Shown here piece by piece: positions 6,345-57,764 of a DNA stretch of 64,000 bases (its first letter is position 1; every line of letters starts with the position of its first letter). The position numbers and the translations under genes were made by a program. Source of the stretch: Patescibacteria group bacterium (GTDB lineage: Bacteria; Patescibacteriota; Patescibacteriia; JAHIZJ01); assembly GCA_041650335.1 (NCBI GenBank), contig JBAZLK010000003.1:57765-121764 (forward strand), in the 5' to 3' direction. Below the pieces are notes generated by a model. The model was not told the DNA's origin, ran no database searches, and worked only from the letters and a program-made list of their open reading frames with translations.

Positions 6345-7301
6345 ATGGTCGCAAATTCCCTCACCCAATATATCAAAGACTTTCTCGACTACCTCGAAAT
6401 CGAGCGGAATTGCAGTCTGGCTACGAAACGGAATTACCAGGCTTACCTTGATCGTTTTCTCGATTGGTCGAAATTGTCAAAACCGCAAGACATCACGCTT
6501 GAGGTCGTCCGGCAATTTCGGCTCTATCTCAATCGGCAGGAAAACCAGAAAAAGGAAACGCTCAAAAAAAGTACTCAGAACTACTATCTTATAGCGTTGC
6601 GGGCGTTTCTGAAATACTTGGCCAAACGTGATGTTAAAACTCTGGCGCCGGAAAAAATCGAACTGGCAAAAATGCCCGAACGCCAGGTGACCTTTCTCGA
6701 GGGCGACGATCTCGAACGTTTTCTGGCTGCTCCGCTGAAATCCGACGAGCCGGCCATCATTCAAAAGCGTGACAAGGCGATCTTGGAAATGTTTTTTTCA
6801 ACCGGCCTGCGCGTTTCCGAGCTGGCCGGACTGACTAAAGAAAACGTCAATCTGGCGAAAGACGAATTCACCATTCGCGGCAAGGGCAGCAAGCTCCGGC
6901 TCGTTTTCCTCTCCAACCAGGCCAAGCACTGGCTGAAACAATACCTCGACAGCCGGGCCGATGTTTCGCTCTATCTATTTGTCCGGCACGATCGGGCGAT
7001 CAAGCGTGGTGCCGCGGCTTCGCCGCTCACCTCACGAAGCATCCAACGCCTGGTCCAGCACTACGCAAAATCCGTCGGCATCACCAAACGCATCACCCCC
7101 CACGTGCTCCGGCACTCTTACGCCACCGACCTGCTGACTGGCGGCGCCGATATCCGGTCAGTCCAGTCGTTGCTCGGCCACGCGTCAATCACGACTACGC
7201 AAATTTATACCCATATCACCGATCAGCAGTTAAAGGACGTGTATAAGGCGTTTCACAGTCGGAAACGAACGCCTGGCAAGTTAATTGACACGCCGAAATA
7301 A
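6345..7301 (+). CDS. xerC: tyrosine recombinase, XerC/XerD type
   Basis: N-terminal SAM-like core-binding region (FLDYLEIERNCSLATKRNYQAYLDRFLDW). C-terminal catalytic box HVLRHSYATDLLTGGADIRSVQSLLGHASITTTQIYTHI contains R...HxxR...Y. Confidence 0.85.
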   Translation: MVANSLTQYIKDFLDYLEIERNCSLATKRNYQAYLDRFLDWSKLSKPQDITLEVVRQFRLYLNRQENQKKETLKKSTQNYYLIALRAFLKYLAKRDVKTLAPEKIELAKMPERQVTFLEGDDLERFLAAPLKSDEPAIIQKRDKAILEMFFSTGLRVSELAGLTKENVNLAKDEFTIRGKGSKLRLVFLSNQAKHWLKQYLDSRADVSLYLFVRHDRAIKRGAAASPLTSRSIQRLVQHYAKSVGITKRITPHVLRHSYATDLLTGGADIRSVQSLLGHASITTTQIYTHITDQQLKDVYKAFHSRKRTPGKLIDTPK

Positions 7302-7326: not shown

Positions 7327-7401
7327 GCCCTCGTAGCTCAACGGATAGAGCGCCAGCCTTCTAAGCTGGACATAGAGGTTCGATTCCTCTCGAGGGCACC
7401 A
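7327..7401 (+). tRNA. tRNA-Arg (anticodon TCT), CCA encoded
   Basis: Cloverleaf read by hand. Acceptor stem gccctcg/cgagggc, anticodon stem ccagc/gctgg with loop cttctaa (anticodon TCT), T-arm agagg-ttcgatt-cctct, and a 3' ACCA end. Confidence 0.85.
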
Positions 7402-8542: not shown

Positions 8543-9355
8543 TTATCTTCCATTTACGAACCGCAGAATGTCCGGCATCTTCACTCGAGCCGCCTTTTCA
8601 CCGGCGACAATGTGCTTCTTGACCGTCTTCGGATCAAAGAAATCATTGAAACCAACAAATGTCTCGCTGTGCGTTTGCGGTTCAATCACAATATCCGAGT
8701 CAAGGATTGTCTGATGGGCAAAATTATGACGGATAATGGTCAGGGCGCGATAGGTTACGTCAGTGATGCTCTTCTTCGACAGGCGTTTTAATCCGATCTC
8801 CGTTTCCAAACTGACCGAAATAACTTTATCGGCGCCAAGAAATCGGACGACATCATCTGGCACCGGGTTCGTCAATCCGCCGTCGGCCAGAAACCAGTTG
8901 TCGTAGGGAATCGGCGAAAAAACCGGGGTGGCGGAAATACTGGCATGAACCGCCTTAACCACGTCGCCCTCGTTAAGATGAACTTCCTTGCCAGTATGGA
9001 GGTCGGTCGCGACCACGGTCAGTGGAATTTTCAGATCGGAAAACTGAAGATAGCCGAGATGAGCGCGTAAAAACTTCTCGATTTTATTGCCGGCCATGAA
9101 GCCGCCTTTCCAGGTCGGGTCGATGAGCGCCAGCCATTGTTTCAGATTGCTGTGTTCCAACGCGAACGCTTCGATCTTCCGGCTGTCGCCCCAGGCCGCG
9201 TACAAGGCGCCGATCAACGCGCCGATACTCGTGCCCGCCATAAGATCGATCGGAACATGATTGTCTTCGAGTGTTTTCAGAACACCGATGTGCGTCAGCC
9301 CGCGCACCCCGCCGGAGCCAAGCGCTAGACCAATTTTTCTTTTTTTCATTATCAT
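8543..9355 (-). CDS. patatin-like phospholipase
   Basis: GLALGSGGVRG (oxyanion GGxR), GTSIG (GxSxG nucleophile) and DGGLTNPVP (DGG catalytic Asp) are all present. Confidence 0.8.
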   Translation of the reverse strand: MIMKKRKIGLALGSGGVRGLTHIGVLKTLEDNHVPIDLMAGTSIGALIGALYAAWGDSRKIEAFALEHSNLKQWLALIDPTWKGGFMAGNKIEKFLRAHLGYLQFSDLKIPLTVVATDLHTGKEVHLNEGDVVKAVHASISATPVFSPIPYDNWFLADGGLTNPVPDDVVRFLGADKVISVSLETEIGLKRLSKKSITDVTYRALTIIRHNFAHQTILDSDIVIEPQTHSETFVGFNDFFDPKTVKKHIVAGEKAARVKMPDILRFVNGR

Positions 9356-18482: not shown

Positions 18483-19640
18483 ATGAGACGGACAAAAGCA
18501 AAGGTTATCTATATACAGAAAATTACGCCAACCGTCATCGAGTTGGCCATCGCCCGATCGGACGGACGTCCGTTTTTCGAATTTCGGGCGGGTCAATACG
18601 CAACCGTGAGCTTCCCCGATCAGCCGAGCCTCCGGGGCGAGCGTTCCTTTTCCATCGCCAGCGCTCCGAGCGAGCGTTCTCGGCTGCGTTTCGGTGTTCG
18701 GGTCGTCGGACGATATACCACCAAATTAAGCCAGCTCCAGCCCGGCGAACGGGTCATGGTTGGTGGACCGTTTGGGAAATTTACGTATGAACCCGAACGC
18801 GACGACGCCTCGGTATTCCTTGCCGGCGGCATCGGCATCACCCCTTTTCTGAGCATGATCCAGCTGGCGACGGAGCGCGGTTTGAGCCAGCGCCTGACGC
18901 TTTTTTACAGCGTCCGATCATTGAACGACGCCTCGTATCAAAACGATCTGGAGCGGTGGCAGCAAACGAATCCGAATTTTAAATATTTTCTCGCGGTCAC
19001 GAACGGCCAGCTTCGGCCACCCGCTGACAACCTGATCTCGGGCCGGCTGAACCGCGAGCTGCTCACAAAGAAATTAGCTGACGATCTCTGGAACCGGACG
19101 TACTTTTTGTGCGGCCCGCCCGCCTTTATGTCGGCCATGACAGCCATGCTGCGCTCAATGGGTTTTTCGACGAAGGTCATCCATTCCGAGCGTTTCGGCG
19201 TTGGCTCGCAAGAATTTATTGAACGCGGCACGCCGATTCCGAAATATGTTTTCGCCGCCTGGGGCGTATCAACCGCCATTCTGCTTGGTGCAATCGTCCG
19301 GATCGAGCAAGCCAAACATCTTATTATCCCTCCCACCCAGGACACATCCGCTGAGGCCGCACCGATCGCCAACGAACAAGGGGATAATAGCAATCAGACA
19401 AACTCTGCCCATCTTCCAACCGTTGAACAGAGTGCAGCCCAGCCAACGCCGGCACCAACAACCAAGCCGACTGCTCCAACTCCGACACCAGCACCGAGCC
19501 CAGCGCCGAAACCGACCCCGGCTCCATCAACAAATACCGCTGTCCCGTCGCAACCAACGACAAATATTAACTCACCAGCGCCGGCACCGACCCCGGCCCC
19601 GAAACCAGCTCCCGTCGTTCCTCGGACAACGGTTTCATAA
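18483..19640 (+). CDS. FNR-like FAD/NAD(P)-binding oxidoreductase with C-terminal TM helix and Pro/Thr/Ala-rich tail
   Basis: RAGQYATVSF ... RSFSIASAP (RxYS FAD motif), LAGGIGITPFLSMI (GGxGxxP NAD motif) and YFLCGPPAFM (CGPxxM). Followed by a TM helix YVFAAWGVSTAILLGAIVRI and ~110 aa of PT-rich low complexity. Confidence 0.7.
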   Translation: MRRTKAKVIYIQKITPTVIELAIARSDGRPFFEFRAGQYATVSFPDQPSLRGERSFSIASAPSERSRLRFGVRVVGRYTTKLSQLQPGERVMVGGPFGKFTYEPERDDASVFLAGGIGITPFLSMIQLATERGLSQRLTLFYSVRSLNDASYQNDLERWQQTNPNFKYFLAVTNGQLRPPADNLISGRLNRELLTKKLADDLWNRTYFLCGPPAFMSAMTAMLRSMGFSTKVIHSERFGVGSQEFIERGTPIPKYVFAAWGVSTAILLGAIVRIEQAKHLIIPPTQDTSAEAAPIANEQGDNSNQTNSAHLPTVEQSAAQPTPAPTTKPTAPTPTPAPSPAPKPTPAPSTNTAVPSQPTTNINSPAPAPTPAPKPAPVVPRTTVS

Positions 19641-19652
19641 TCTCCAAGCTTT

Positions 19653-20597
19653 ATGGTATCGCCACCGACCGCCACCAGACAATTTCCCGCCCTCGGCACG
19701 ATTGTTGCCGGTGGTTTTCGCCTCGATCCGGTGACCGCCGACCGACTTTTTGACGATCTTCAACGACAGATCGCCGTGTTTGAAAATCGCTTCAGCCGTT
19801 TTCTTCCCGATTCAGAACTATCTCGACTTAATCAACGAGCCGGTAAACGCGTTCCGGTCAGCCGCGATCTAATCAAGCTTATATTGACTGCCCAAGGGAT
19901 CTGGCGGTATACCGACGGTCTGATTGATTCGACAATCGGTCAGGCGCTCGTCGCGGCCGGGTATGATGCACCCTTTGAGCTTTTGCCGTACCGGGTTGAA
20001 ACCTCCGACCGACCAATGGCGAAATCAGAACATTCCTTCGCCGAAGTCAAGATCAACCGGAAACAAAAAACGGTATTCTTTCCGGCTGATCTACAATTTG
20101 ATTTTGGCGGTCTTGGCAAAGGCTATCTGCTCGACCAACTCCGGTCACGGGTAAAAGCGAAGACGTCTAATTATTGGCTGTCCCTCGGCGGCGACATGAT
20201 CGTGTCGGGCACCGACACGGACGGCCGCGCCTGGTCAATCGGCATCCAGGACCCAAACAAGCCGGAGCGGGATTTTGCCTACTTACGCCTCCCCGCTGGA
20301 GAATGGAACGTGGCTACCTCCGGCACCACGAAGCGGCGCGGCGGACAATCGAAAAAATCTTGGCATCATATCATCGACCCGCGAACCGGCCAACCAGCCC
20401 GAACCGACGTTATCCAAACGACTGTTTTGGCGCCGACCGCGGTGGAGGCTGATGCCCTGGCAAAAGTCGTTCTACTGCTCGGTCCGACCGCTGGCCTGAA
20501 GTGGGCTGCACGCCACAACCTTGAAGCGCTGATTGTGACAAAAGACAGCCGCACGCATACTACGCCCATGCTAAAAAATTACTTGGCTCAGGTATGA
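19653..20597 (+). CDS. apbE: FAD:protein FMN transferase (ApbE family)
   Basis: ApbE hallmarks DFGGLGKGY, ATSGTTKRRG and WHHIIDPRTG. Its stop overlaps the next start (ATGA). Confidence 0.8.
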   Translation: MVSPPTATRQFPALGTIVAGGFRLDPVTADRLFDDLQRQIAVFENRFSRFLPDSELSRLNQRAGKRVPVSRDLIKLILTAQGIWRYTDGLIDSTIGQALVAAGYDAPFELLPYRVETSDRPMAKSEHSFAEVKINRKQKTVFFPADLQFDFGGLGKGYLLDQLRSRVKAKTSNYWLSLGGDMIVSGTDTDGRAWSIGIQDPNKPERDFAYLRLPAGEWNVATSGTTKRRGGQSKKSWHHIIDPRTGQPARTDVIQTTVLAPTAVEADALAKVVLLLGPTAGLKWAARHNLEALIVTKDSRTHTTPMLKNYLAQV

Positions 20598-21565
20598 AAT
20601 TGAGATATCTATTTGCGTTTGCCACTATCAGTTTGTTCATGCTCATTCGTCCCCTGGCAGTGCGCGCTGCGACGGCCACAACGACGACGACCCTGGCGGA
20701 TTCGAGCACGGAACGCCAGGCCGAGATTGAATCAGACGACGAAAAAGAGGTGGACGAAGCGCCGGAGGTTGCGCCCACGCCAAGCACGATCCAGCCCGTT
20801 GAACCAGACGCGCCGGTGGCAACAGCGCCAGTTATTATACCGACGCCCACGGTTGAAACAGCGCCGGCCACACCGACTCAACCGAAAACGGTAGCCACTC
20901 CAAGTGCCGACCAAGTGCCGACGGCTGAAACGGCGCCGAATAACACAGCCGCGCCGCTGACCGAACCGCCCACAGACGCCGCACCCGCCATCACACCCCA
21001 AGCGGCAAACTCCCCGCTTTCTTGGACCTGGATCGCGACGCGGGCGGCCGGTATCGCTTCCTTTCTTCTTCTGGCCGTGATCACAATAACCGGGATAAGC
21101 CTAACGACCGGTCTACTCTTTCGCCTCATGTCGCCAGCTTCAGCCTGGTCAATGCATCGCGCGATCGGCTCCGCGCTGCTTGTCTCCATAATCATTCATA
21201 TTGGCGCGCTGCCGTTTGACCGCTTCATCAGACTACGCGTGGTCGATCTCTTGGTACCATTTGCCTCCAGCTATCGCCCGACTCTTGTTGCCCTTGGTAT
21301 TTTCGGATTTTATCTGCTCCTTCTTGTTCTCGGCACATCGCTCTACACGCTCACGTCGCATGCCCGGTTCTGGCGCACTGTCCACTTCTTCGGTTTCCCA
21401 ATGTTTGTCATGATTTTCCTCCATAGCGTTTTGATCGGTTCCGACAGTAAACAGCCGTGGATGATCGCGATGTATTGGAGTACGGCTGTTTTGGTCAGTC
21501 TCTTCGTTGTCTATCGGCTCGCCTGGAAATATCGAAAACCGGCCCTGGCAAATTATGCCGACTAA
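20594..21565 (+). CDS. ferric-reductase-type (FRD, PF01794-like) di-heme transmembrane protein with extracellular acidic/PT-rich N-terminal region
   Basis: Signal peptide, then ~130 aa rich in Ala/Pro/Thr/Glu/Asp, then 6 TM helices. Paired His residues in two helices (MHRAIGSALLVSIIIHIG; VHFFGFPMFVMIFLHSV) match bis-heme ligands of NOX/MsrQ-type domains. Confidence 0.6.
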   Translation: MKLRYLFAFATISLFMLIRPLAVRAATATTTTTLADSSTERQAEIESDDEKEVDEAPEVAPTPSTIQPVEPDAPVATAPVIIPTPTVETAPATPTQPKTVATPSADQVPTAETAPNNTAAPLTEPPTDAAPAITPQAANSPLSWTWIATRAAGIASFLLLAVITITGISLTTGLLFRLMSPASAWSMHRAIGSALLVSIIIHIGALPFDRFIRLRVVDLLVPFASSYRPTLVALGIFGFYLLLLVLGTSLYTLTSHARFWRTVHFFGFPMFVMIFLHSVLIGSDSKQPWMIAMYWSTAVLVSLFVVYRLAWKYRKPALANYAD

Positions 21566-29419: not shown

Positions 29420-32400
29420 CTACTTTCTCGGCAGCGAGTGAATGCCACCCTGGCCCTGCCGTTCATGGAGATCCCAGGCGTAGCTGGCGAGCTGCGCCGG
29501 ATCGATCGGGTCGCCATCAACGTACAAGAACAGGATATTGGCATCATCAACGTGGTGCAGCTGCGCTTGGGCGTACTTGGAGGGCATGCAGCCCTGGGGA
29601 CAGACGGCCACACCGCCATGACGCAGGTCCACGATGGTCAGGGCCGCCTCTCCTTCAGGCGCGCCTTCAAAGTACGGTTTGACCGCTTCCATTACCGGCT
29701 CGATCCTGGTGTGCGTGTTCCGGCCAATCGCCCGAGCGACGACCCGGTCCAGGCGCCAGAATACCCACCACTGCAGGAGGGCCTTCAGGCTGACCGCGAC
29801 GCGATTGAACTGATCGCGCTTATGGCCGTGCCCTTGGGTCCAGGTGAGATACTGGATCCATTCGTGGATCGTTGAGCGCCGAACCCTGACATTGTGGTCA
29901 GCCAGTATTCTGACTACATTGCCATTGGCATGGGGATCTCTGACCACGTAGATCTCGCCCGAGAGGTGTCCCTGGACGACATTGGCCGCCCGCTCAGGAT
30001 CAATCCAGATCGACTGAAACTCACGGACGACTCGGTCCAAGAAACCGGGCAGCCCCCAGTCGCACAGCCAATCTCGGATCTGACCCGGCAAGCGCTGGGC
30101 TACCGGACGAACCTTCAACTGCTCTACCGCTCGTGCCATCGCCCACTGATACACTCGATCGACGTCAGCCGGGTTCCGGGCGATCGGCAGATAGTAGCAC
30201 CAGAGCTCATCCAGCAGATCAGCCAGCATGACTGCGGCGCAAGCCTTGAGCCGCAGGTGCTTTCCCACGCCGTCATAGGCATTGTCCGATGAAGTAGCAA
30301 ACAGGTGAACTGCCTGCGCTGGATCCAGCTGGGTCAGAATGATCCCGTGCTGCGTCCGGTAGGAACCGAAGCGGCAGGGACCAGTCGTCGCCGGCATGAA
30401 CCAGTAGAAGTGTTTGATCTCGGGATATCGCGGCAGAACCTCCCGAACCATGTGCTCGAGAACGCCGGTCACGTACATGTACGGGACGCACTCTTTGCCG
30501 GTCGCGTACCGGCCGCGACCCAGACGGAGTATCCGGTCATCGGTCGGCGGCGCCGCGATTACCCTGATGCCGATTGACGAATAGACCGCGGTCAGCAAGG
30601 GCTCAAGGTTGCCAAACTGGCACAGAACCAGAGCTGATTCGGGGTCATTCGGATCAAACGGCTTCCCCGTGTCGTGTTCCTGCAGCAAGGTGAGGTCCGT
30701 GACCAGCGCGCGCTGGTCGCCCTCTCTCAAGTGATGTCGCATGGCGTAGACGCTTGACTGAATCCGCGTCGTAAAGCCGCCCATGCCCGTATGCCCATCG
30801 GTCTCGATGATGCAGTAGGGCACGTCGGCGATGTACCGCAGCCAGTGCTCCAGAAACGCGTCCGGCCCGCAGGAGTAGCAGGTGATCATCAGGGGGTAAA
30901 CGCCGGGTCGCCGGTGCAGATCAACCACCGCCCTGAGAATCCTCTGCCCCTCGCCCCAGTACACTAGGTCGAGAAAAGGCGTGGTCGGATCCACCGGGTA
31001 GCAGTCAACCGGAATGGCCACGACGCCGCTACCCTGGATGATCTCTGGGATCTGCCCATTGATCGCCGGGGAGAGCGTGGCATAGAGCCGGCCCAGCACC
31101 ACGACGGCCGGGACGCGATGTTCTGCGGCATAATCCAGAGCGCGCTGACCGATCGCCAGACAATGCTCTTGGAAATCCCGCTGCACCCCAACGGCCAAGT
31201 AAAAAGCCCGAAGGCTTTCTGCTTTGGTGCGGCCCAGCTCCCGTCCCATCGAGACAAACACTCGTCGCACTTCCTCGCTCGTCTGCCAATTCAGGCCGAA
31301 CTTGATCACCGGCCTCAGGATCTTCATCCCGGAACCCGATGAATCGTTCGGAATCACTCCGTTGATGGCGGCAGCCACCAGCTCGGGCGTTCCCTGAACC
31401 AGCGGGCACGTACTGCCGATGTCGCAGCCGCTCTCCCGAGGCAGTAGGACCACCTTGGGAAAGAAGATCAGATCAACGCCCAGTTCAACCGCCTCGTCAG
31501 CCAGACCATGGGCAACCTTGACCGGCGCACACATGTCTTTGCCTAAACTGATTTCCTCGCCCCGCTTGAGGGTTTTGGTGGTCGGTTCAAGCACTTTGAC
31601 ATTCACGCCGAGGTTGGCCAAGAACGAACTGAATAGGGGCATGAACCGGACGTTGGCCAGAGTCAGCGGAACCGCCACGGTTGGTTGCCCGGCTCGATCC
31701 ACCGGTAAGGCCCGAATCAAAGCATCATGAAGTTTGCGCCGTTCGTCAAACGGCTTTGGCGCGTCAGTCGGCAGTCTGTTTCTGGTGTTTCCTTCGTGCA
31801 GCGGGCACATACCGCCTGACTTAACCGTCACCGTCTGATCGCCGATTGACACCTTCGTCCGCTCAATCCTGCACTTGGCACCGCATTCGCGGTTGCCGCA
31901 TACAAAGCTTGAGCGTTCGACAACCTCTGCCGCCAGAAATCGCCCGAGATCAAACGTCTGATCCAGAACAATCTGTTCCTGACGGCATTGCTCCAGCGTC
32001 AACAAGGCGATACCGATAGCCCCGGTAGCGCCTGGCCGAGGTGGTACGATTACCTTTCGACCAGTTACCGCCGCGATCGCCATAGGCAAGGCGATGTTAT
32101 TCACCGGCATGCCGAGCGCGAAGATGACCTCTTCCAGTCCCAGCTGTCCGACCAGCCGGTTTAACCAGTTGTAGGCAATGAAGTAGAAGCGACCGGCGGC
32201 GATGTCTTGGACGGTAAAGCCCTCACCCAACGCCCGGTCAGCAATGTCCCCAGAGAAGACGACACAGGTCTGACCCATGTCGATCGGCTCCCGCGAGTCG
32301 AGCGCCCACCGGCCAAATTCCTGAATCGTCGTATTCATCCGTCTCGCGTCGTACTCAACTTCAGATCCGGTTCCGGCAGAACAGGCTCGGTTCATGTCTG

Positions 32401-33757
32401 AACCAACCGGCACTCCGTTCCGAATATTGATCACCTTAGCATCCTGGCCGCCCAGCTCACAAACCGTAACCGACCGGCCATGCTCAGGATCGTAGTGACA
32501 AGCACCCGTAGCATGGGCGGTGATCTCGGTTTCAACCAGCATCTGATTCCGCAAACCGCCAAAGCAAGCCTCAGCCACGTCGTAGACCGCGCGCCGACCC
32601 GAACCGGTAAAGCCGAGACTGACGATCTGAACTCGGTCTCCGACGGCAGCCAGCATTTGCCGAACGATCAGCTGTGCAGCGGCGACCGGATTGCTGTTGG
32701 TCGGAACGTAGTCGTCCCAGACCCGGCGTCCGGTAACGATGTCGATCAAGGCTGCCTTGGTTCCGGTTGAGCCGGAATCAATGCCAAGCGCGGCTTGTCC
32801 GCTCCAATGTGCCAGATCAAAATCCGGCTCGGTCAGCTTCTGGACCAGGTGAGCCGCCGTGTTAAGCGGCTTAAACGAACGGATGCTCCGAGACTTAGGA
32901 CGAACGACAGTTGCTGAATCAGCGGTGTAGCTCGACACCTGACCAGCCACGACCAAATCAGCCGCGATCAATCCCGCACCCCAGGCTTCGAAATAGTCAG
33001 CCTCGGGATGGATTTCAATCGTCGGCTGGCCGATCATCGACTGGAGAGAGTCTATAACCGGCTGATTCTTGGTCACGCCACCGATTACGATCACCCGCCC
33101 GTCAATCGAGTTCTTCCTAAACAGGGCGTAAACAGATGCGGCAATGCCTCGGAAATAGCTCTTCAGCAAGACCGCAATGTCTTCGCCCGCATTGGCTAGG
33201 TGAGTGATCTCAGACTGGGCGAACGCCGCACAGCGCGGAACGAACTCAACCACTCGGTCAGTTGCCTGCGCCGCAGTAATCGCCTCGGGTACGTTCATGC
33301 CGGCTCTGGCGCATTGCTTCTCAACCGCTTCACCCGTGCCAGCCGAACACTTTTCAGCCAGCGAATTAGAGTATTCACCACCTTGGTTGCGCGTGAGCAC
33401 GCTGTAGCCCCCGGCGCTGATCCGAATCAGGTTGATCGGCTCGTGGCCGACACCCTCAATCGGAGGAAAGAAATACTCGCAGGCACGATTCAGAGCCGCA
33501 TCTCTGGGAATGTCACTTTGAACTTGTCCCCCAAGAATGCTGCCCAAGCTGCCGGTCGCCACCACCTTACGAATCCGTGAATGGTCCAGTCGCGCCCAGA
33601 TCTGGCCGACCGCCTCACTCGGATTGCGCTGATGGTGGCACAGCATTTCGTCAACCTTCAGCCAGCTTCCATCAGATCGCTCCAGGACGATCGCCGCCAC
33701 GGTAGTCCGCCCGACTTTCAGGCCGACTACCTGGTCTTTCTGAGCCACACTGATCAT
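29420..33757 (-). CDS. giant fusion protein with two BadF/BadG/BcrA/BcrD-type ATPase (dehydratase-activase) domains plus a Cys-rich 2-hydroxyacyl-CoA-dehydratase-like C-terminal region
   Basis: Domain 1: KCSAGTGEAVE, AQSEITH, IGGVTKNQ (compare HgdC KCAAGTG / ESEVIS / TGGVAQN). Domain 2: LGIDSGSTGTKAAL, ELGGQDAKVI, RACSAGTGSE. The last ~800 aa carry CxxC-type clusters and CRFGSY. AGGAGG RBS 4 nt before the start. Confidence 0.7.
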   Translation of the reverse strand: MISVAQKDQVVGLKVGRTTVAAIVLERSDGSWLKVDEMLCHHQRNPSEAVGQIWARLDHSRIRKVVATGSLGSILGGQVQSDIPRDAALNRACEYFFPPIEGVGHEPINLIRISAGGYSVLTRNQGGEYSNSLAEKCSAGTGEAVEKQCARAGMNVPEAITAAQATDRVVEFVPRCAAFAQSEITHLANAGEDIAVLLKSYFRGIAASVYALFRKNSIDGRVIVIGGVTKNQPVIDSLQSMIGQPTIEIHPEADYFEAWGAGLIAADLVVAGQVSSYTADSATVVRPKSRSIRSFKPLNTAAHLVQKLTEPDFDLAHWSGQAALGIDSGSTGTKAALIDIVTGRRVWDDYVPTNSNPVAAAQLIVRQMLAAVGDRVQIVSLGFTGSGRRAVYDVAEACFGGLRNQMLVETEITAHATGACHYDPEHGRSVTVCELGGQDAKVINIRNGVPVGSDMNRACSAGTGSEVEYDARRMNTTIQEFGRWALDSREPIDMGQTCVVFSGDIADRALGEGFTVQDIAAGRFYFIAYNWLNRLVGQLGLEEVIFALGMPVNNIALPMAIAAVTGRKVIVPPRPGATGAIGIALLTLEQCRQEQIVLDQTFDLGRFLAAEVVERSSFVCGNRECGAKCRIERTKVSIGDQTVTVKSGGMCPLHEGNTRNRLPTDAPKPFDERRKLHDALIRALPVDRAGQPTVAVPLTLANVRFMPLFSSFLANLGVNVKVLEPTTKTLKRGEEISLGKDMCAPVKVAHGLADEAVELGVDLIFFPKVVLLPRESGCDIGSTCPLVQGTPELVAAAINGVIPNDSSGSGMKILRPVIKFGLNWQTSEEVRRVFVSMGRELGRTKAESLRAFYLAVGVQRDFQEHCLAIGQRALDYAAEHRVPAVVVLGRLYATLSPAINGQIPEIIQGSGVVAIPVDCYPVDPTTPFLDLVYWGEGQRILRAVVDLHRRPGVYPLMITCYSCGPDAFLEHWLRYIADVPYCIIETDGHTGMGGFTTRIQSSVYAMRHHLREGDQRALVTDLTLLQEHDTGKPFDPNDPESALVLCQFGNLEPLLTAVYSSIGIRVIAAPPTDDRILRLGRGRYATGKECVPYMYVTGVLEHMVREVLPRYPEIKHFYWFMPATTGPCRFGSYRTQHGIILTQLDPAQAVHLFATSSDNAYDGVGKHLRLKACAAVMLADLLDELWCYYLPIARNPADVDRVYQWAMARAVEQLKVRPVAQRLPGQIRDWLCDWGLPGFLDRVVREFQSIWIDPERAANVVQGHLSGEIYVVRDPHANGNVVRILADHNVRVRRSTIHEWIQYLTWTQGHGHKRDQFNRVAVSLKALLQWWVFWRLDRVVARAIGRNTHTRIEPVMEAVKPYFEGAPEGEAALTIVDLRHGGVAVCPQGCMPSKYAQAQLHHVDDANILFLYVDGDPIDPAQLASYAWDLHERQGQGGIHSLPRK

Positions 33758-33939
33758 TCACTGCCTCCTTCTATTCGTGTTCACTGATTGCCCTACCTAC
33801 GTAAAAACACGGGTTTTCAAAGACCGTGTTTATCTTTATTTTTAAGCCAATTTGGCTATATACCTTGTAGCAGGTATATGTCGTATTGTCAAAAAAGAAA
33901 AAATGGCTCAAACCGTGTCGGTCGAGCCAAGAAGAAAGA

Positions 33940-35010
33940 TCACACGTCGATGTGGCGACGGAAGTACCGTTCCTCCACGGGCTGGAAGAGGCGGGTTGCC
34001 TCTGCCAGATCAACGCGATGCATCCATTGCAGCGTGCGGATCACGTTGGTCGGCGTCACATTGACGACCTGAGGAGTAAACCAGCCGAGATGGTAGAGAT
34101 GACCGAGAGGCGTGTCGAAGACCTTGACCTGGCCGCGAACGAACACAGCCAGTGCAAAGACCCCGCCGAGCAGCCCGTGTTCGCACCCCCACTGATCGAT
34201 CGGCGCCATACACTTCTCGTCAGTGATCGAGGCCAGCTGATACGCTTCCATAGCCTCGAGAATCTGAGCTTTGGTCAGAGGCTTCTCTTCCCGACCGATC
34301 GCCCAGAGATGAGGGCTGTGCATACCTTGAACCGGCAGCTTCATGGCATCGGTGACGATCCGAAGCCCCGGCAGCAGCCTGCCCACGTCACCGCCGTGGT
34401 GCGTCCCATACTCATCATCGTCGAAGTCGCTGAACGATGGACCAGTGCACACTTTCGGGTTGCCGCGGTCCGTGTCCCGCCGGTTGAAGCCAGCCACGAC
34501 CAGTACGAGATCCGCGCCTGCCTTCTGGAGAATGCGGATGGCCGTCACCGCGCTGTGGTCGTTACAGGAAGCGTTCTGAAGCCAGACCTCAGCGAGCGAC
34601 TGGTCGTCATCCACACCGAGACAGGTGATCTTGCCGAAGCCGTGTTCCGCGCCCTGTGCGATGAACCGTCTCGTGCCATCATCATACTTCCGGTACAGCT
34701 CCTCCTGGAGGGCTAGAGCATTGTCCGTGCAGTCGATGATGACGGTCGAGCCACCGATCGCGTCTTCCACCCCCATGGGCTTGAACCTCTGGCTCTCGAA
34801 GGCAGGAATCATGTCCGGCCAGGTGGCCAGCCGGACACCGCCCGCGACGAGCTCGTGCAGGACCGAACGATGCGTGATCTTGCCCTTGTCGCCGGCTCTC
34901 TTCACGAGAAAGACGTTCTCGAGACCGAATCCCTCACGGAACTCCGCCAGGATTCTCGCGGTTCTCCTGCCGATCGTGCTTGACCCAACGACTGTTACGC
35001 TGCCCATCAT
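33940..35010 (-). CDS. NAD(P)-binding dehydrogenase with GAPDH/semialdehyde-dehydrogenase-like catalytic Cys
   Basis: N-terminal Rossmann VTVVGSSTIGRRTARIL. LQNASCNDHSAV resembles the GAPDH active site (NASCTTN). GAGGAGG RBS. Confidence 0.5.
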   Translation of the reverse strand: MMGSVTVVGSSTIGRRTARILAEFREGFGLENVFLVKRAGDKGKITHRSVLHELVAGGVRLATWPDMIPAFESQRFKPMGVEDAIGGSTVIIDCTDNALALQEELYRKYDDGTRRFIAQGAEHGFGKITCLGVDDDQSLAEVWLQNASCNDHSAVTAIRILQKAGADLVLVVAGFNRRDTDRGNPKVCTGPSFSDFDDDEYGTHHGGDVGRLLPGLRIVTDAMKLPVQGMHSPHLWAIGREEKPLTKAQILEAMEAYQLASITDEKCMAPIDQWGCEHGLLGGVFALAVFVRGQVKVFDTPLGHLYHLGWFTPQVVNVTPTNVIRTLQWMHRVDLAEATRLFQPVEERYFRRHIDV

Positions 35011-35186
35011 TGACCTCCTCGATGGCCGCATACACCCGGGTAATCGCTTCGAACACAACTCGTTCCTCGGAACGAAAGAAGGCCTGAGTTACCCTCCCCT
35101 GCCTTCTTACCAATCAAATAGTATTACGTATGATAAAGTATGACAAGTGCTTTTTTCCACAGCATTGCTGTTAAAAATACATAGCT

Positions 35187-35606
35187 GTGATAGAATGTTG
35201 TTACATTTGCGTTTTTTTGGTGTTCTGTCGGCAAAGGTTGGTAAAAAATATTCGTGGTTTTTTTCTTTTTCCCCTCATGATTTTTATCGGTCAATTTTTT
35301 GAGATATTAGCCATCGATCGGCAAAAAACAGCCGCTGAATTTCAGCTGCCGTCTTTCGAATTGCCCGAGATCGATTATGCCGGTCTGGCCATTAACGGGG
35401 CGATGTGGCTGGCGATCTTTTTGGCGTTTTTTATGTTAAGCCGGATGATCTTCCATATCTATAAGCTCGCCGTTGCCGGCGCTGACGATGAAAACCGAGA
35501 AATGGCAAAGGATAATATTAAGAAAAATATCGGGTTTTTCCTTCTGGCATCGCTTTCGTGGATGGCCTTGTCTTTCTTCCAGCACGGTATCTCGCAATAT
35601 TTTTAG
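35187..35606 (+). CDS. hypothetical membrane protein
   Basis: 139-aa frame with 3 predicted TM helices. Confidence 0.35.
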   Translation: MIECCYICVFLVFCRQRLVKNIRGFFLFPLMIFIGQFFEILAIDRQKTAAEFQLPSFELPEIDYAGLAINGAMWLAIFLAFFMLSRMIFHIYKLAVAGADDENREMAKDNIKKNIGFFLLASLSWMALSFFQHGISQYF

Positions 35607-35793
35607 GCATTCCATACGCCGACATTTCCTTAACGCTCGGCGCTGTCAGGAATTTCTTTGCCGGCAAGCAGGCTTAAATAGGCCGAATATTGTCGCTTAT
35701 CCCAACCGGAGCGCCTATTATTTGTCAATTATTGGAAAATATATTATAATGTACTGGCAGACGGCATTATTTTATCCATATTTAGGCACAATA

Positions 35794-36258
35794 ATGTCAG
35801 ACGAAAAATTTGTCACTCAATTAAAAGACTTAGACACGACAAAACAAAACACTGAGTCTGATGATAGTGTGAATTTATTCACGTCAGATGACGGCGAGGG
35901 CGATGTTTACTTAGAAGAAGATTATTCCGGCCAGCTGGCCGTTGATGTCTACCAAACGCCTAAGGACATTGTCATTAAATCGACCATCGCCGGCGTACAA
36001 CCCGAGGATCTCGACATCACCATTAATAATGACATGGTCACGATCAAGGGCATCCGCCGGAAAGAGGAGGTTGTCGCCGACGAAGACTATATCTACAACG
36101 AATGCCACTGGGGCGGTTTTTCCCGCTCGATTATTTTACCAGTCGATATCAAAGAAGACCGCGTCAAGGCGAACCTGAAAAACGGTATCTTGACCATTGT
36201 CCTCCCGAAAGCCGGAAAATCAAAAGTCCGCGTTGTTGAAGTCCACGAAGAAACATAA
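35794..36258 (+). CDS. small heat shock protein, Hsp20/alpha-crystallin family
   Basis: Alpha-crystallin domain: LAVDVYQTPKDIVIKSTIAGVQPEDLDITINNDMVTIKGIRRKEE...GGFSRSIILPVDIKEDRVKANLKNGILTIVLPK. Confidence 0.85.
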   Translation: MSDEKFVTQLKDLDTTKQNTESDDSVNLFTSDDGEGDVYLEEDYSGQLAVDVYQTPKDIVIKSTIAGVQPEDLDITINNDMVTIKGIRRKEEVVADEDYIYNECHWGGFSRSIILPVDIKEDRVKANLKNGILTIVLPKAGKSKVRVVEVHEET

Positions 36259-36274
36259 TTTTATACGGATCACT

Positions 36275-37501
36275 ATGCAAAGACGCCTTTTCATTCTTGT
36301 CCTCCTTTGCCTGGCTGCGGCCAGTGTTATTACGACCCTGACCGTCCGGGCTGATTCGTTGAGCGGCAACGACGAGACCGGGTTAACAAACAAAGATCTG
36401 CGAACCGCCCGAACCGACGTTCAAAACAGCAAGCAATTTTTCCGCGATGCGAAAATAAATTGGGAAAAAGCGCGCGACGCCTATCAAGAAGACCCCAGCG
36501 CGAGCAACCTGGAATCAGCCAAGAAGTACGCTGTTCAGCTGATCAAACAGGCAATCGACGTTTTCGATAAACACTATTTCCTCCTGGCCGCTCGGCTGAA
36601 GAATTCGACAGGCCTCGCCGAGGCCGAGCGAGCGACCATGCTTACTGATTTGACCACTGAGCAGGTCTGGCTTCAAACTCAGCGCGTGGCAATATCTGAA
36701 ACCAATGATCCAGCCGTCATCACTGATATCGCCAACCGGCTGAATACCTATCGGACAGAGAAAAGCGTTTTCGTAAAAAAGGTGGTTGGCGTTATCGTCA
36801 GCAGCCGGATCCAAACAATTCTGACTCAAATGAACGACGCCACCGCTCGCGTCGATGATGATGTGACGATATTAACCGCTCTGCAAAAAGACACCGGATC
36901 GGTAACAAGCCCGCGCGCGGATTTTGCCTTGAAGCTGGCAGCGGCAAAAGAAAAATACCAGCTTGGCCACGATGGTTTCGCGAGCTTGGCAAATGCCGCG
37001 ACAGTGGAACAAGATTTTGAGTCAGCGCTGGCTAAGCTCCGCGAGTCCGGCGAGAAACTTACCGACGCCAAAACATCGTTGGATCAAATTATCGCCGAAC
37101 TGAAAAAAGTGAAAGCCTCGCGGGTCGGCGGCAATGGCAAGCTGTCCGTGACTGGAGAGGGAAGTTTCGTCATTTCGGCGAGCGAGGGCACGGTGACAAT
37201 TGCCGCTGGGAAAACGCCGACGCTCGAGGTTTTTGATCGCGCCGGCGATTGCACGGTTGAAACACAGGGCGCCGCGACCAAAATACCGGCTGGCCGGAAA
37301 ACGAGTTATTCCGGGTTTACCCAGGCAACCATCACCGGCACGGATTTCTTGCTTCTCTATACCGGCGCGACGACCGAACTGACCGCTGCCGGCACAGGCC
37401 GGGCCTATCTGAAAGGCACCGGCACGTTTCAGGCCGTACCGGACGGCGTGGCGGAAAGCTTCGCGGATGAAGGCGGCGTCATTTTTAACCTTACTCAATA
37501 A
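36275..37501 (+). CDS. secreted hypothetical protein
   Basis: Signal peptide MQRRLFILVLLCLAAASVITTLTVRA. Alpha-helical or coiled-coil middle and a beta-rich C-terminal part. Confidence 0.5.
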   Translation: MQRRLFILVLLCLAAASVITTLTVRADSLSGNDETGLTNKDLRTARTDVQNSKQFFRDAKINWEKARDAYQEDPSASNLESAKKYAVQLIKQAIDVFDKHYFLLAARLKNSTGLAEAERATMLTDLTTEQVWLQTQRVAISETNDPAVITDIANRLNTYRTEKSVFVKKVVGVIVSSRIQTILTQMNDATARVDDDVTILTALQKDTGSVTSPRADFALKLAAAKEKYQLGHDGFASLANAATVEQDFESALAKLRESGEKLTDAKTSLDQIIAELKKVKASRVGGNGKLSVTGEGSFVISASEGTVTIAAGKTPTLEVFDRAGDCTVETQGAATKIPAGRKTSYSGFTQATITGTDFLLLYTGATTELTAAGTGRAYLKGTGTFQAVPDGVAESFADEGGVIFNLTQ

Positions 37502-37513
37502 CCGCAGGACTAT

Positions 37514-37783
37514 ATGAGAAAAAAAACGCGCGTTAGTATTATCCTCATTATCGTCATCGTTATTGTTGCGGCTGGCGCCTGGTACTTTTTCTTCCGGTCG
37601 TCATCAAAGAAGGAGACCTCAAAAAACAATACGAACCAGGTCGAGGATCTCGGATACGATAGCGTGCTTGATACAAGCGATCTGAGTAAGATTGATCCGG
37701 CCAGCGCCGTGGATGCGCTTGATCTGGATGTTCAAGATTACGCCCAGCCGGATGTAAGCCTTGAAATTGAGCTGACAAAATGA
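37514..37783 (+). CDS. small single-TM protein
   Basis: RVSIILIIVIVIVAAGAWYFFF. The stop overlaps the next start (ATGA). Confidence 0.4.
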   Translation: MRKKTRVSIILIIVIVIVAAGAWYFFFRSSSKKETSKNNTNQVEDLGYDSVLDTSDLSKIDPASAVDALDLDVQDYAQPDVSLEIELTK

Positions 37784-38019
37784 CTGCCTCAGACGCCCGC
37801 GAAGCGATCGTAACATCCGTCGAAGAGACAACGGTTATTCTCGATTGTGACGGCCAGAAAATTTCCTGGCCGAAAAAACATGCTCCAAAAAACGTGGCGG
37901 TCGGCGATCGACTCATGCTCGCGCTTATGGATGTAGCCGCCTACCAAGCCAAGCGCGAAGAGCTTGCCAAAGCAATTTTAAACGACATCCTTCAGGATAA
38001 CGAAAACAAGGAGGTATGA
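37780..38019 (+). CDS. DUF3006-like small protein
   Basis: AIVTSVEETTVILDCDGQKISWPKKHAPKNVAVGDRLMLAL resembles the DUF3006 pattern (IVDRIE...AVLE.DDG...LP...EGD.L). Translationally coupled to the VanW gene. Confidence 0.45.
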   Translation: MTASDAREAIVTSVEETTVILDCDGQKISWPKKHAPKNVAVGDRLMLALMDVAAYQAKREELAKAILNDILQDNENKEV

Positions 38020-54954: not shown

Positions 54955-55560
54955 ATGAAACAAACAATTTGCCTATTCGGCGACAGCATCACCTGGGGCG
55001 CCTGGGATCGGGAACGGGGCGGCTGGGCTGCCCGGCTGAGAAGCTATTTGGAAACGAATAACCGCGATGTTGCCGTGTACAACTGCGGCGTATCCGGCGA
55101 TACGGTTGCGGATTTGCTTCAACGATTCGATGTCGAGTGCAAAGCCAGGGGCCCAAACATCATCGTCTTGTCGATCGGGATAAATGACTCTCGATATTAC
55201 ACGACAAAAGACAAACCAGAAACAACCCCCGAGCAATTTCAAAAGAACTTTGACGAACTTCTTAAGAAGGCAAAAAAGTATGCTGATGCAATCATCTGTT
55301 TGGGGCTCACTAAAGTGGATGAAAAGATAACAACGCCCTGCTCTTGGAAGCCAGATAAGTACTACGATGATGAAAATATCAGAAAGTATGACGCGATAAT
55401 GCAAAAGTCTTGTGACCACGCCGGTGTACTTTTTCACAGCCTGTATGACTTACTAGACTTTTCCGATCTTGTCGATGGTTTACACCCCAGCTCCAAAGGG
55501 CATGAAAAAATGTTTCTAGCGATAAAAGATTTTTTTCAGAAACAGGGGTATATATCATAG
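54955..55560 (+). CDS. SGNH/GDSL family hydrolase
   Basis: Block I ICLFGDSITWG (GDS nucleophile), block III GINDS, block V DGLHPSSKGH (DxxH). Confidence 0.8.
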   Translation: MKQTICLFGDSITWGAWDRERGGWAARLRSYLETNNRDVAVYNCGVSGDTVADLLQRFDVECKARGPNIIVLSIGINDSRYYTTKDKPETTPEQFQKNFDELLKKAKKYADAIICLGLTKVDEKITTPCSWKPDKYYDDENIRKYDAIMQKSCDHAGVLFHSLYDLLDFSDLVDGLHPSSKGHEKMFLAIKDFFQKQGYIS

Positions 55561-57143: not shown

Positions 57144-57764
57144 ATGAAAGGCAATAAAACCCAAATCTTCTACATCCACGGCGGCGATACCCACCCGAAC
57201 GAACGGGCCTATCAGCGCTGGCTGAGAATGCGGCCGGTCACCATCGAGAAAAAAATCACCTGGACCACGACCTATCTCGACCAGGCGCTGGGCCGGCGGT
57301 TTCACATCATCCGTCCCCGGATGCCGCTCCAGGACAACGCGAAGTACCGGGACTGGAAAACGCATTTCGAACGGTTTTTCCCGAAACTGAAAAACAATAT
57401 TATCCTCATCGGCCAGTCGCTTGGCGGCATTTTCCTAGCCAAGTATCTGTCAGAAAACAAATTTCCCCGGAAGATATTATCCGCCTACCTGGTCTGTCCA
57501 CCATTTGACGACACCCTGCGGAAAGAGCGCCTGGCTGGCGGATTCCGGCTGAAGTCCGACTTGTCGCTGATCAAAAAGAACGCACCGAAACTTACGTTGT
57601 TATTTTCGAAGAACGACGATGTCGTTCCGTATGTTCACGCAGCCAAGTACGCGAAGAAATTGCCGCACGCGAAGGTGCTTGTCTACAAACACATAAACGG
57701 ACACTTCCGGGTGGCAAGGTTGCCGGAGATTGTCAGGATGATTAAGCACGATATAAAAAAATAG
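57144..57764 (+). CDS. alpha/beta hydrolase, YdeN/RBBP9-like serine esterase
   Basis: Nucleophile elbow ILIGQSLGG (GxSxG) plus an Asp and His (INGHF) further C-terminal. 206 aa. Confidence 0.7.
   Translation: MKGNKTQIFYIHGGDTHPNERAYQRWLRMRPVTIEKKITWTTTYLDQALGRRFHIIRPRMPLQDNAKYRDWKTHFERFFPKLKNNIILIGQSLGGIFLAKYLSENKFPRKILSAYLVCPPFDDTLRKERLAGGFRLKSDLSLIKKNAPKLTLLFSKNDDVVPYVHAAKYAKKLPHAKVLVYKHINGHFRVARLPEIVRMIKHDIKK

Follow-up and report, generated by a model that had tools for sequence, protein, structure and literature searches.

In Clostridium perfringens, PlsA and PlsR reduce the sn-1 ester of diacyl lipids and so produce plasmalogens; in many other bacteria a single open reading frame (ORF) encodes both parts (PMC9702350). 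Enterococcus, Lactococcus and Bifidobacterium have single PlsA ORFs, 1415-1640 aa long and with the domain order Act1-Act2-Red1-Red2, that confer plasmalogen synthesis on Escherichia coli (PMC12838417). Ger, a "modified PlsA" from Thermotoga maritima and Desulfatibacillum alkenivorans, produces 1-O-alkyl glycerol ethers in E. coli under anaerobic conditions only, and is defined by two PF01869 domains and a PF09989 domain (the "BBD") with a variable remainder (PMC13159169). Myxococcota, Desulfobacterota and Nitrospirota are reported carriers of Ger (PMC11868695). Here we analyze a stretch of 64,000 nucleotides from contig JBAZLK010000003.1 of a Patescibacteria metagenome-assembled genome (MAG), referred to below as the window, which encodes a 1445-aa protein on its minus strand. 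This large protein is probably a single-polypeptide, PlsA/PlsR-Ger-type member of the benzoyl-CoA reductase/2-hydroxyacyl-CoA dehydratase (BCR/HAD) superfamily, with a lipid-remodelling function and scavenged substrates. An earlier note on the same DNA had assigned the fusion to a poorly characterised family, which proved incorrect: the architecture is that of PlsA/PlsR and Ger, and E. coli gains the ability to make ether lipids from just one such gene (PMC13159169, PMC12838417, PMC9702350). The novelty lies in finding a PlsA/Ger-type member in an unusual host; the family itself is already known.

Pfam searches found two PF01869 BcrAD_BadFG stretches in the large ORF (E 1.5e-41), and the NCBIfam acyl-CoA dehydratase activase domain model TIGR00241 scored 171.7 bits against a cutoff of 125.4. 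These matches bear out the two complete activase domains that the earlier note had described within one giant ORF. The second of them (Act2) matches the HadI activator 4eht (E 7e-22). The note had also likened the remaining Cys-rich region to the catalytic subunits of dehydratases or reductases, proposing PF01869, PF09989 and PF06050 as the families to search for, and this likeness is supported. PF09989 DUF2229 covers residues 693-919 in the first catalytic module, Red1 (E 4e-40), and residues 1052-1106 give another, weak DUF2229 match within Red2, which has a confident HAD/BCR-like fold in the predicted model. A fold search with the model of the large protein returned HadC, DCCP, BzdN, MbdN, HadB, BzdO and MbdO as its top seven matches. 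However, PF06050 HGD-D gave no match to the large ORF even at E<=10.

Cysteine conservation was read from an alignment of 34 homologues of the large protein. C137, C176, C459, C498, C620, C625, C629, C651, C743, C784, C963, C1090, C1128 and C1390 are invariant, and C919 of Red1 is conserved in at least 90% of the sequences. Thirteen candidate cluster cysteines are kept from the window clade through Listeria, while C625 and C919 differ in the Listeria homologue; the count of candidate iron-sulfur (Fe-S) ligands that the earlier note had called for thus supports conserved cofactor sites. By analogy with HgdC, the pairs C137/C176 and C459/C498, two cysteines per activase domain, form the pattern of a putative bridging [4Fe-4S] cluster. 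The large gene has a dN/dS of 0.10 relative to its counterpart in a related genome (L009) and is therefore under purifying selection and in use.

The architecture is widespread. More than 2000 proteins of 1400-1550 aa share it at 98-100% coverage, with E values down to 1e-268, and the phyla of these full-length homologues include Myxococcota, Desulfobacterota and Nitrospirota. The closest relatives outside Patescibacteria are proteins of Desulfobacterota, Myxococcota, Thermoleophilia and Chloroflexi MAGs at 31-35% identity, rather than the Firmicutes or Archaea among which the earlier note had proposed to look. One of them, 31% identical to the large protein, is from a MAG of Desulfatibacillaceae, the family of D. 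alkenivorans and thus of a verified Ger. As a stand-in for verified PlsA/Ger we used the fused homologue of Listeria monocytogenes, which comes from a record mislabelled "plasmid"; Listeria is cited in a review as having plsA/plsR orthologues (PMC9702350). The Listeria protein is colinear with the large protein over 1233 columns (23% identity, E 2e-63).

In a rough neighbour-joining tree, the window protein and six close relatives (59-94% identity) formed one clade with P0007 as its sister. This clade was nested among environmental Desulfobacterota, Thermoleophilia and Chloroflexi sequences, far from Listeria. On the favored explanation, a single Patescibacteria clade gained the gene in the distant past and passed it on vertically. 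Because another Patescibacteria homologue (L012) branched in a different part of the tree, the phylum seems to have acquired the gene family at least twice. Two metagenome scans yielded no close relatives of the window clade.

The resemblance to Ger (T. maritima Tmari_0479/AGL49404; D. alkenivorans SHJ90043) extends to the whole polypeptide: both are single chains of about 1400-1450 aa with two PF01869 domains and PF09989, followed in the window protein by a putative second catalytic region like that of Ger. Ger is likewise a stand-alone gene in anaerobes, and its homologues occur in the same environmental groups to which the window protein is most closely related. The window protein also shares the Act1-Act2-Red1-Red2 order with PlsA/PlsR, which is split in C. 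perfringens (CPE1194/1195) and forms a single ORF in E. faecalis, L. cremoris, B. longum and Listeria, and its candidate Fe-S cysteines are conserved along the colinear L. monocytogenes protein. Its 1445 aa also fall within the 1415-1640 aa of verified single-ORF PlsA proteins (PMC12838417). In contrast, HadBC/HadI, BzdNOPQ/MbdNOPQ and DCCP/DCCP-R are built from separate subunits, carry PF06050 and act on CoA thioesters or small molecules, whereas the window protein is entirely fused. The 2-hydroxyacyl-CoA dehydratases (HgdAB/HadBC with HgdC/HadI) in particular have separate PF06050-bearing alpha and beta subunits, unlike this single chain, and they have a stand-alone homodimeric activator of about 260-270 aa, unlike the two activase domains fused here in tandem to the catalytic part.

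Act1, the first activase domain, has degenerate nucleotide motifs. Its phosphate-1 motif reads GLKVG in place of GxDxG (D14K; residues 12-14, window 33716..33724), a change present in all six members of the window clade and in no other homologue. The phosphate-2 motif is lost across the whole environmental group (GGYS for GGQD; GxxGYS). Listeria Act1, by comparison, retains the canonical GLDVGST and ELGGEDAK motifs. We infer from these motifs that Act1 would contribute ligands to the cluster and play a structural part, with ATP hydrolysis falling to Act2.

Assignment to the PlsA/Ger type is based on the domain architecture, on homology over the full length and on the conservation of cofactor sites, with the Listeria protein taking the place of the verified CPE1194/1195, EF1327, T. 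maritima AGL49404 and D. alkenivorans SHJ90043, and several observations weigh against it. Identity is low both to the nearest relatives outside the clade and to the Listeria type, so that function could have shifted. The absence of PF06050 matches departs from T. maritima Ger, which has small HGD-D matches (PMC13159169). The D14K substitution is confined to the window clade. The host also sets the protein apart from Ger, being a Patescibacteria bacterium presumed to lack lipid synthesis. Alkyl and alkenyl ether products cannot be distinguished from sequence (PMC11868695), and the sole lipidome found for a fraction enriched in members of the Candidate Phyla Radiation (CPR) reported no bacterial ether lipids (10.1101/465690).

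The known systems suggest how the large protein may work; we infer its substrate, product, ATP use and electron donor by analogy. The tandem Act1 and Act2 domains would share one [4Fe-4S] cluster, held by C137/C176 and C459/C498 and reduced by a low-potential donor. ATP hydrolysis, probably by Act2 alone given the lost nucleotide motifs of Act1, would then push an electron to Fe-S clusters of Red1 and Red2. There, under anoxic conditions, the sn-1 ester carbonyl of a membrane glycerolipid would be reduced and dehydrated to give a vinyl ether (plasmalogen), or an alkyl ether after further reduction. According to one report, CPR bacteria have no lipid biosynthesis of their own and obtain their lipids from other cells (10.1101/465690). 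Because Patescibacteria are thought to lack de novo lipid synthesis, the substrates are likely to be scavenged from a host or neighbour, and the enzyme would serve as a lipid-remodelling device. Three possible lipid-scavenging enzymes are encoded elsewhere in the window (Table 1). A conserved and selected PlsA/Ger-type gene in one CPR clade predicts that some of these bacteria remodel scavenged ester lipids to ether lipids; if true, this would bear on CPR membranes, on host dependence and on how bacterial ether lipids serve as biomarkers in the environment.

We then weighed the possibility that the large protein belongs to the same BBD superfamily and has diverged in substrate, acting on another ester, a thioester or a small molecule rather than a glycerolipid ester. 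The long stem branch of the window clade and its 31-35% identity to outside proteins are in keeping with such a shift, as are the clade-specific D14K, the lipidome without ether lipids, and the fact that experiments have covered no more than a few members of the family (PMC13159169, PMC12838417). Yet colinearity is retained over the full length, together with the domain order and every candidate cluster cysteine, and no genes for an alternative pathway lie nearby. The family is also stand-alone and without conserved partners, as expected for an enzyme acting on ubiquitous membrane lipids. We therefore regard a diverged substrate as possible but rather unlikely, and favor a glycerolipid ester.

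A different model came with the earlier note, in which a 2-hydroxyacyl-CoA dehydratase- or benzoyl-CoA reductase-like fusion works with a GAPDH-like aldehyde/semialdehyde dehydrogenase, encoded by the neighbouring gene, the two forming a compact pathway that handles a 2-hydroxy acid or thioester. The existence of this second gene is confirmed: its product is a GAPDH-like dehydrogenase with the NASCN form of the expected NASC active site and a type II glyceraldehyde-3-phosphate dehydrogenase (GAPDH) fold, encoded upstream on the same strand. The two genes are adjacent and on the same strand in four related genomes, the closest folds of the catalytic part are the HadBC, BzdNO and MbdNO subunits, and the activase domains match HadI and HgdC. 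Nevertheless, the large protein lacks PF06050 and has the fused BBD form instead of alpha and beta subunits with a homodimeric activator. The two genes are also predicted to lie on different transcripts because a strong terminator separates them. Its hairpin has a folding energy of -15 kcal/mol and a z score of -4.8, was equalled by 0 of 200 shuffles, and is conserved in L009.

Genomic context points the same way. No GAPDH-like gene occurs within about 6 kb of 79 other homologues of the large gene, and none stands beside the clade member in a further related genome (L003/L004). Among the 127 ORFs counted around these 79 homologues there was no conserved partner, and even the commonest family appeared only 3 times; this fits a stand-alone enzyme, in line with the reports of one gene giving ether lipids in E. 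coli. CoA-transferase and 2-hydroxyacid dehydrogenase genes, the expected companions of a 2-hydroxyacyl-CoA dehydratase, are absent from the annotated ORFs of the window and are not enriched beside the 79 homologues; no acyl-CoA genes lie nearby either. Relatives of the GAPDH-like gene are found elsewhere in unrelated settings: beside transketolase and serine-pathway genes, on a CPR-like contig with housekeeping genes around them, and on a contig resembling a phage. Moreover, the GAPDH-like coding sequence has been exchanged for an allele with 30% identity while the large gene remains 94% identical. Coupling of the two genes is thus unsupported: promoter-like sites, a ribosome-binding site and a terminator are all present for the GAPDH-like gene alone, and the gene is missing beside the 79 homologues. 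We consider the coupled 2-hydroxy acid or thioester pathway improbable; the sequence context instead indicates that the GAPDH-like gene is an independent transcription unit outside the function of the large gene. In the related Patescibacteria genome of L003 and L004 (L003 13126..13926, L004 12097..12819), the PlsA/Ger-like gene has a different context and lies about 800 bp from a heliorhodopsin gene.

Translation of the GAPDH-like protein likely begins at the ATG at 35010/35007, 4 nt after a GGAGG, and not at the TTG at 35058; the NCBI protein has 355 aa. The promoter-like region upstream is 92-100% identical to that of L009. The only NCBIfam matches were to type II GAPDH models, all below their cutoffs (NF003251, 55 versus 185 bits; TIGR01546, 33 versus 232.9 bits), and "normal" relatives of the protein also fell short at 70-103 bits. 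A profile of the branch matched archaeal GAPDHs in the PDB at about 1e-25, and the AlphaFold model (pLDDT 88) gave 2czc, 1b7g, 1cf2 and 2yyy as best matches with TM values of 0.74-0.82. As in archaeal type II phosphorylating GAPDH, the protein has the SCN catalytic cysteine and the RR and THH motifs within the shared fold. It differs from that enzyme in its NAD motif, GSSTIG rather than GTGTIG, in many other near-invariant residues and in scoring far below the equivalog cutoffs. These comparisons place it in a bacterial branch of its own, small and akin to archaeal type II GAPDH, for which about 130 relatives can be detected. One family member (L008 7001..8086) lies on a phage-like contig packed with short ORFs and carrying HNH and GIY-YIG nucleases.

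Comparison of the window with L009 revealed an abrupt break at this gene. Nucleotide identity is 92-100% up to the first GAPDH-like codons, falls to chance level across the coding sequence, and returns about 20 nt past the stop codon, at the terminator. The compared coding sequences (window 33940..35003, L009 4674..5843) share 30% amino-acid identity and no nucleotide similarity, whereas their flanks are 89-96% identical. The L009 allele is a "normal" family member, 53% identical to the orthologue in L001. The window allele is only 25-30% identical to the L009 and other orthologous alleles, and no relative above 33% identity turned up among 15 billion proteins, whose 1.84 billion cluster representatives were scanned exhaustively with HMMER. 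It keeps the residues that are invariant in the family and alters many near-invariant ones, for example GSSTIG for GTGTIG and SCNDH for SCNTH. The simplest reading is a precise xenologous replacement from an unsampled donor. An origin through a diversity-generating or hypermutation process was rejected because no nucleotide similarity is left anywhere in the coding sequence between such well-conserved flanks. The replacement is a separate small puzzle of gene-level allele turnover in these genomes.

One could still combine the two genes in a clade-specific lipid-remodelling module. In it, a PlsA/Ger-type enzyme powered by just one active ATPase domain would turn host-derived ester lipids into ether lipids, and the unusually fast-changing GAPDH-like protein would be a non-glycolytic, phosphorylating fatty-aldehyde/acyl-phosphate oxidoreductase that feeds or clears the same lipid pool. 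The allele replacement might then reflect adaptation to different hosts. We offer this as a long shot, less probable even than the thioester pathway.

Both genes lie in a GC-rich island, as the earlier note had reported. Mean GC over the window is 52-53%; positions 29420..35058 have a GC content of 0.591 versus 0.520 for the rest, the top value among 584 sliding windows of 5.6 kb, and outside this block no 5.6-kb window exceeds 0.562. Ranked among the 47 genes of the window, the GAPDH-like gene is 2nd and the large ORF 7th, and four further genes equal or exceed the large ORF. The excess recurs in the orthologues of related genomes, in which both genes are 5-10 GC points above their surroundings. 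Recent horizontal transfer on the basis of GC content was accordingly rejected, as the orthologues are likewise raised and other genes of the window are as GC-rich.

Several comparisons bear on the integrity of the block. The Logan assembly of run SRR8542065, made independently, is 100% identical to window positions 30940..38007, and L009 is colinear with the window across both island borders at 87-91% nucleotide identity; the doubt raised in the earlier note about a chimera is thereby settled in favor of a genuine locus. The order HD_4, TSP3, 528-aa protein, large gene and GAPDH-like gene is kept in two more distant relatives (L001/L002 and L005/L006). Beyond the GAPDH-like gene lie HSP20 in L001/L002 and VanW in L001, while the L005/L006 sequence ends before that point. 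Rfam and tRNA scans returned nothing relevant in the island region. Around the island, the window encodes VanW, HSP20, RuvB, QueA/QueH, glycosyltransferases and many proteins of unknown function, consistent with Patescibacteria. NCBI attributes an identical copy of the large protein to a Patescibacteria group MAG, and the host genome is a reduced one, as the earlier note had assumed. A recent horizontal insertion or an assembly chimera is hardly tenable, for although the block is the most GC-rich 5.6 kb of the window and the nearest outgroups come from other phyla, the identical independent assembly, the colinear L009, the shared gene order and GC excess of relatives, the equally GC-rich genes elsewhere and the low dN/dS of the large gene all contradict it.

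Table 1. Position, strand and character of predicted features in the window.
Feature	Position	Strand	Remarks
Putative fused PlsA/Ger-type ORF, 1445 aa	29420..33757	-	Order Act1-Act2-Cys4 linker-Red1-Red2
Act1, first BcrAD_BadFG domain, about residues 8-270	32948..33736	-	Candidate cluster Cys C137, C176; nucleotide motifs degenerate
Act2, second BcrAD_BadFG domain, about residues 322-590	31988..32794	-	Candidate cluster Cys C459, C498; GIDSGSTGTK, ELGGQDAK
Four-Cys beta-hairpin linker, C620, C625, C629, C651	31793..31912	-	From alignment; 3 beta strands in AlphaFold2 (AF2) model
Red1, DUF2229 catalytic module, about residues 693-1010	30728..31681	-	C743, C784, C963, C919
Red2, second, diverged HAD/BCR-like module, about residues 1040-1445	29423..30640	-	C1090, C1128, C1390
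Type II GAPDH-like dehydrogenase, 356 aa	33940..35010	-	Orphan allele; adjoins large gene
Intrinsic terminator after GAPDH-like gene	33891..33929	-	Hairpin followed by U-run
Two overlapping sigma-70-like promoter matches upstream of GAPDH-like gene	35118..35159	-	Consensus matches only
Patatin-like phospholipase	8543..9355	-	Possible lipid-scavenging enzyme
GDSL-like lipase/acylhydrolase	54955..55560	+	Possible lipid-scavenging enzyme
Serine hydrolase	57144..57764	+	Possible lipid-scavenging enzyme

Two annotations near the island deserve correction. The HSP20 ORF (window 35473..36258, plus strand) is listed as 261 aa from a TTG codon; its orthologues have 154-155 aa and align only from residue 108, and the true start is probably near 35794. 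The L009 record CAYJKP010000002.1 is titled "uncultured Gammaproteobacteria bacterium", yet shares about 90% nucleotide identity with the window over 15 kb, and this label is probably wrong.

Three other regions of the window stood out. Between about 53000 and 55500 the sequence is sharply AT-rich (GC 0.36-0.38 versus 0.52); in this stretch the GDSL lipase gene begins, and genes for an NT5C-like nucleotidase and for a 280-aa protein that matches no family are present. A tyrosine recombinase gene of the phage integrase family (6345..7301, plus strand) lies directly upstream of tRNA-Arg(TCT) (7327..7401, plus strand), and this pair may mark an integration site. Finally, positions 18483..21565 (plus strand) encode a 385-aa FAD/NAD-binding oxidoreductase, after which come ApbE, a flavin transferase, and a protein of 323 aa without a family match, a set that could form an electron-transfer module.

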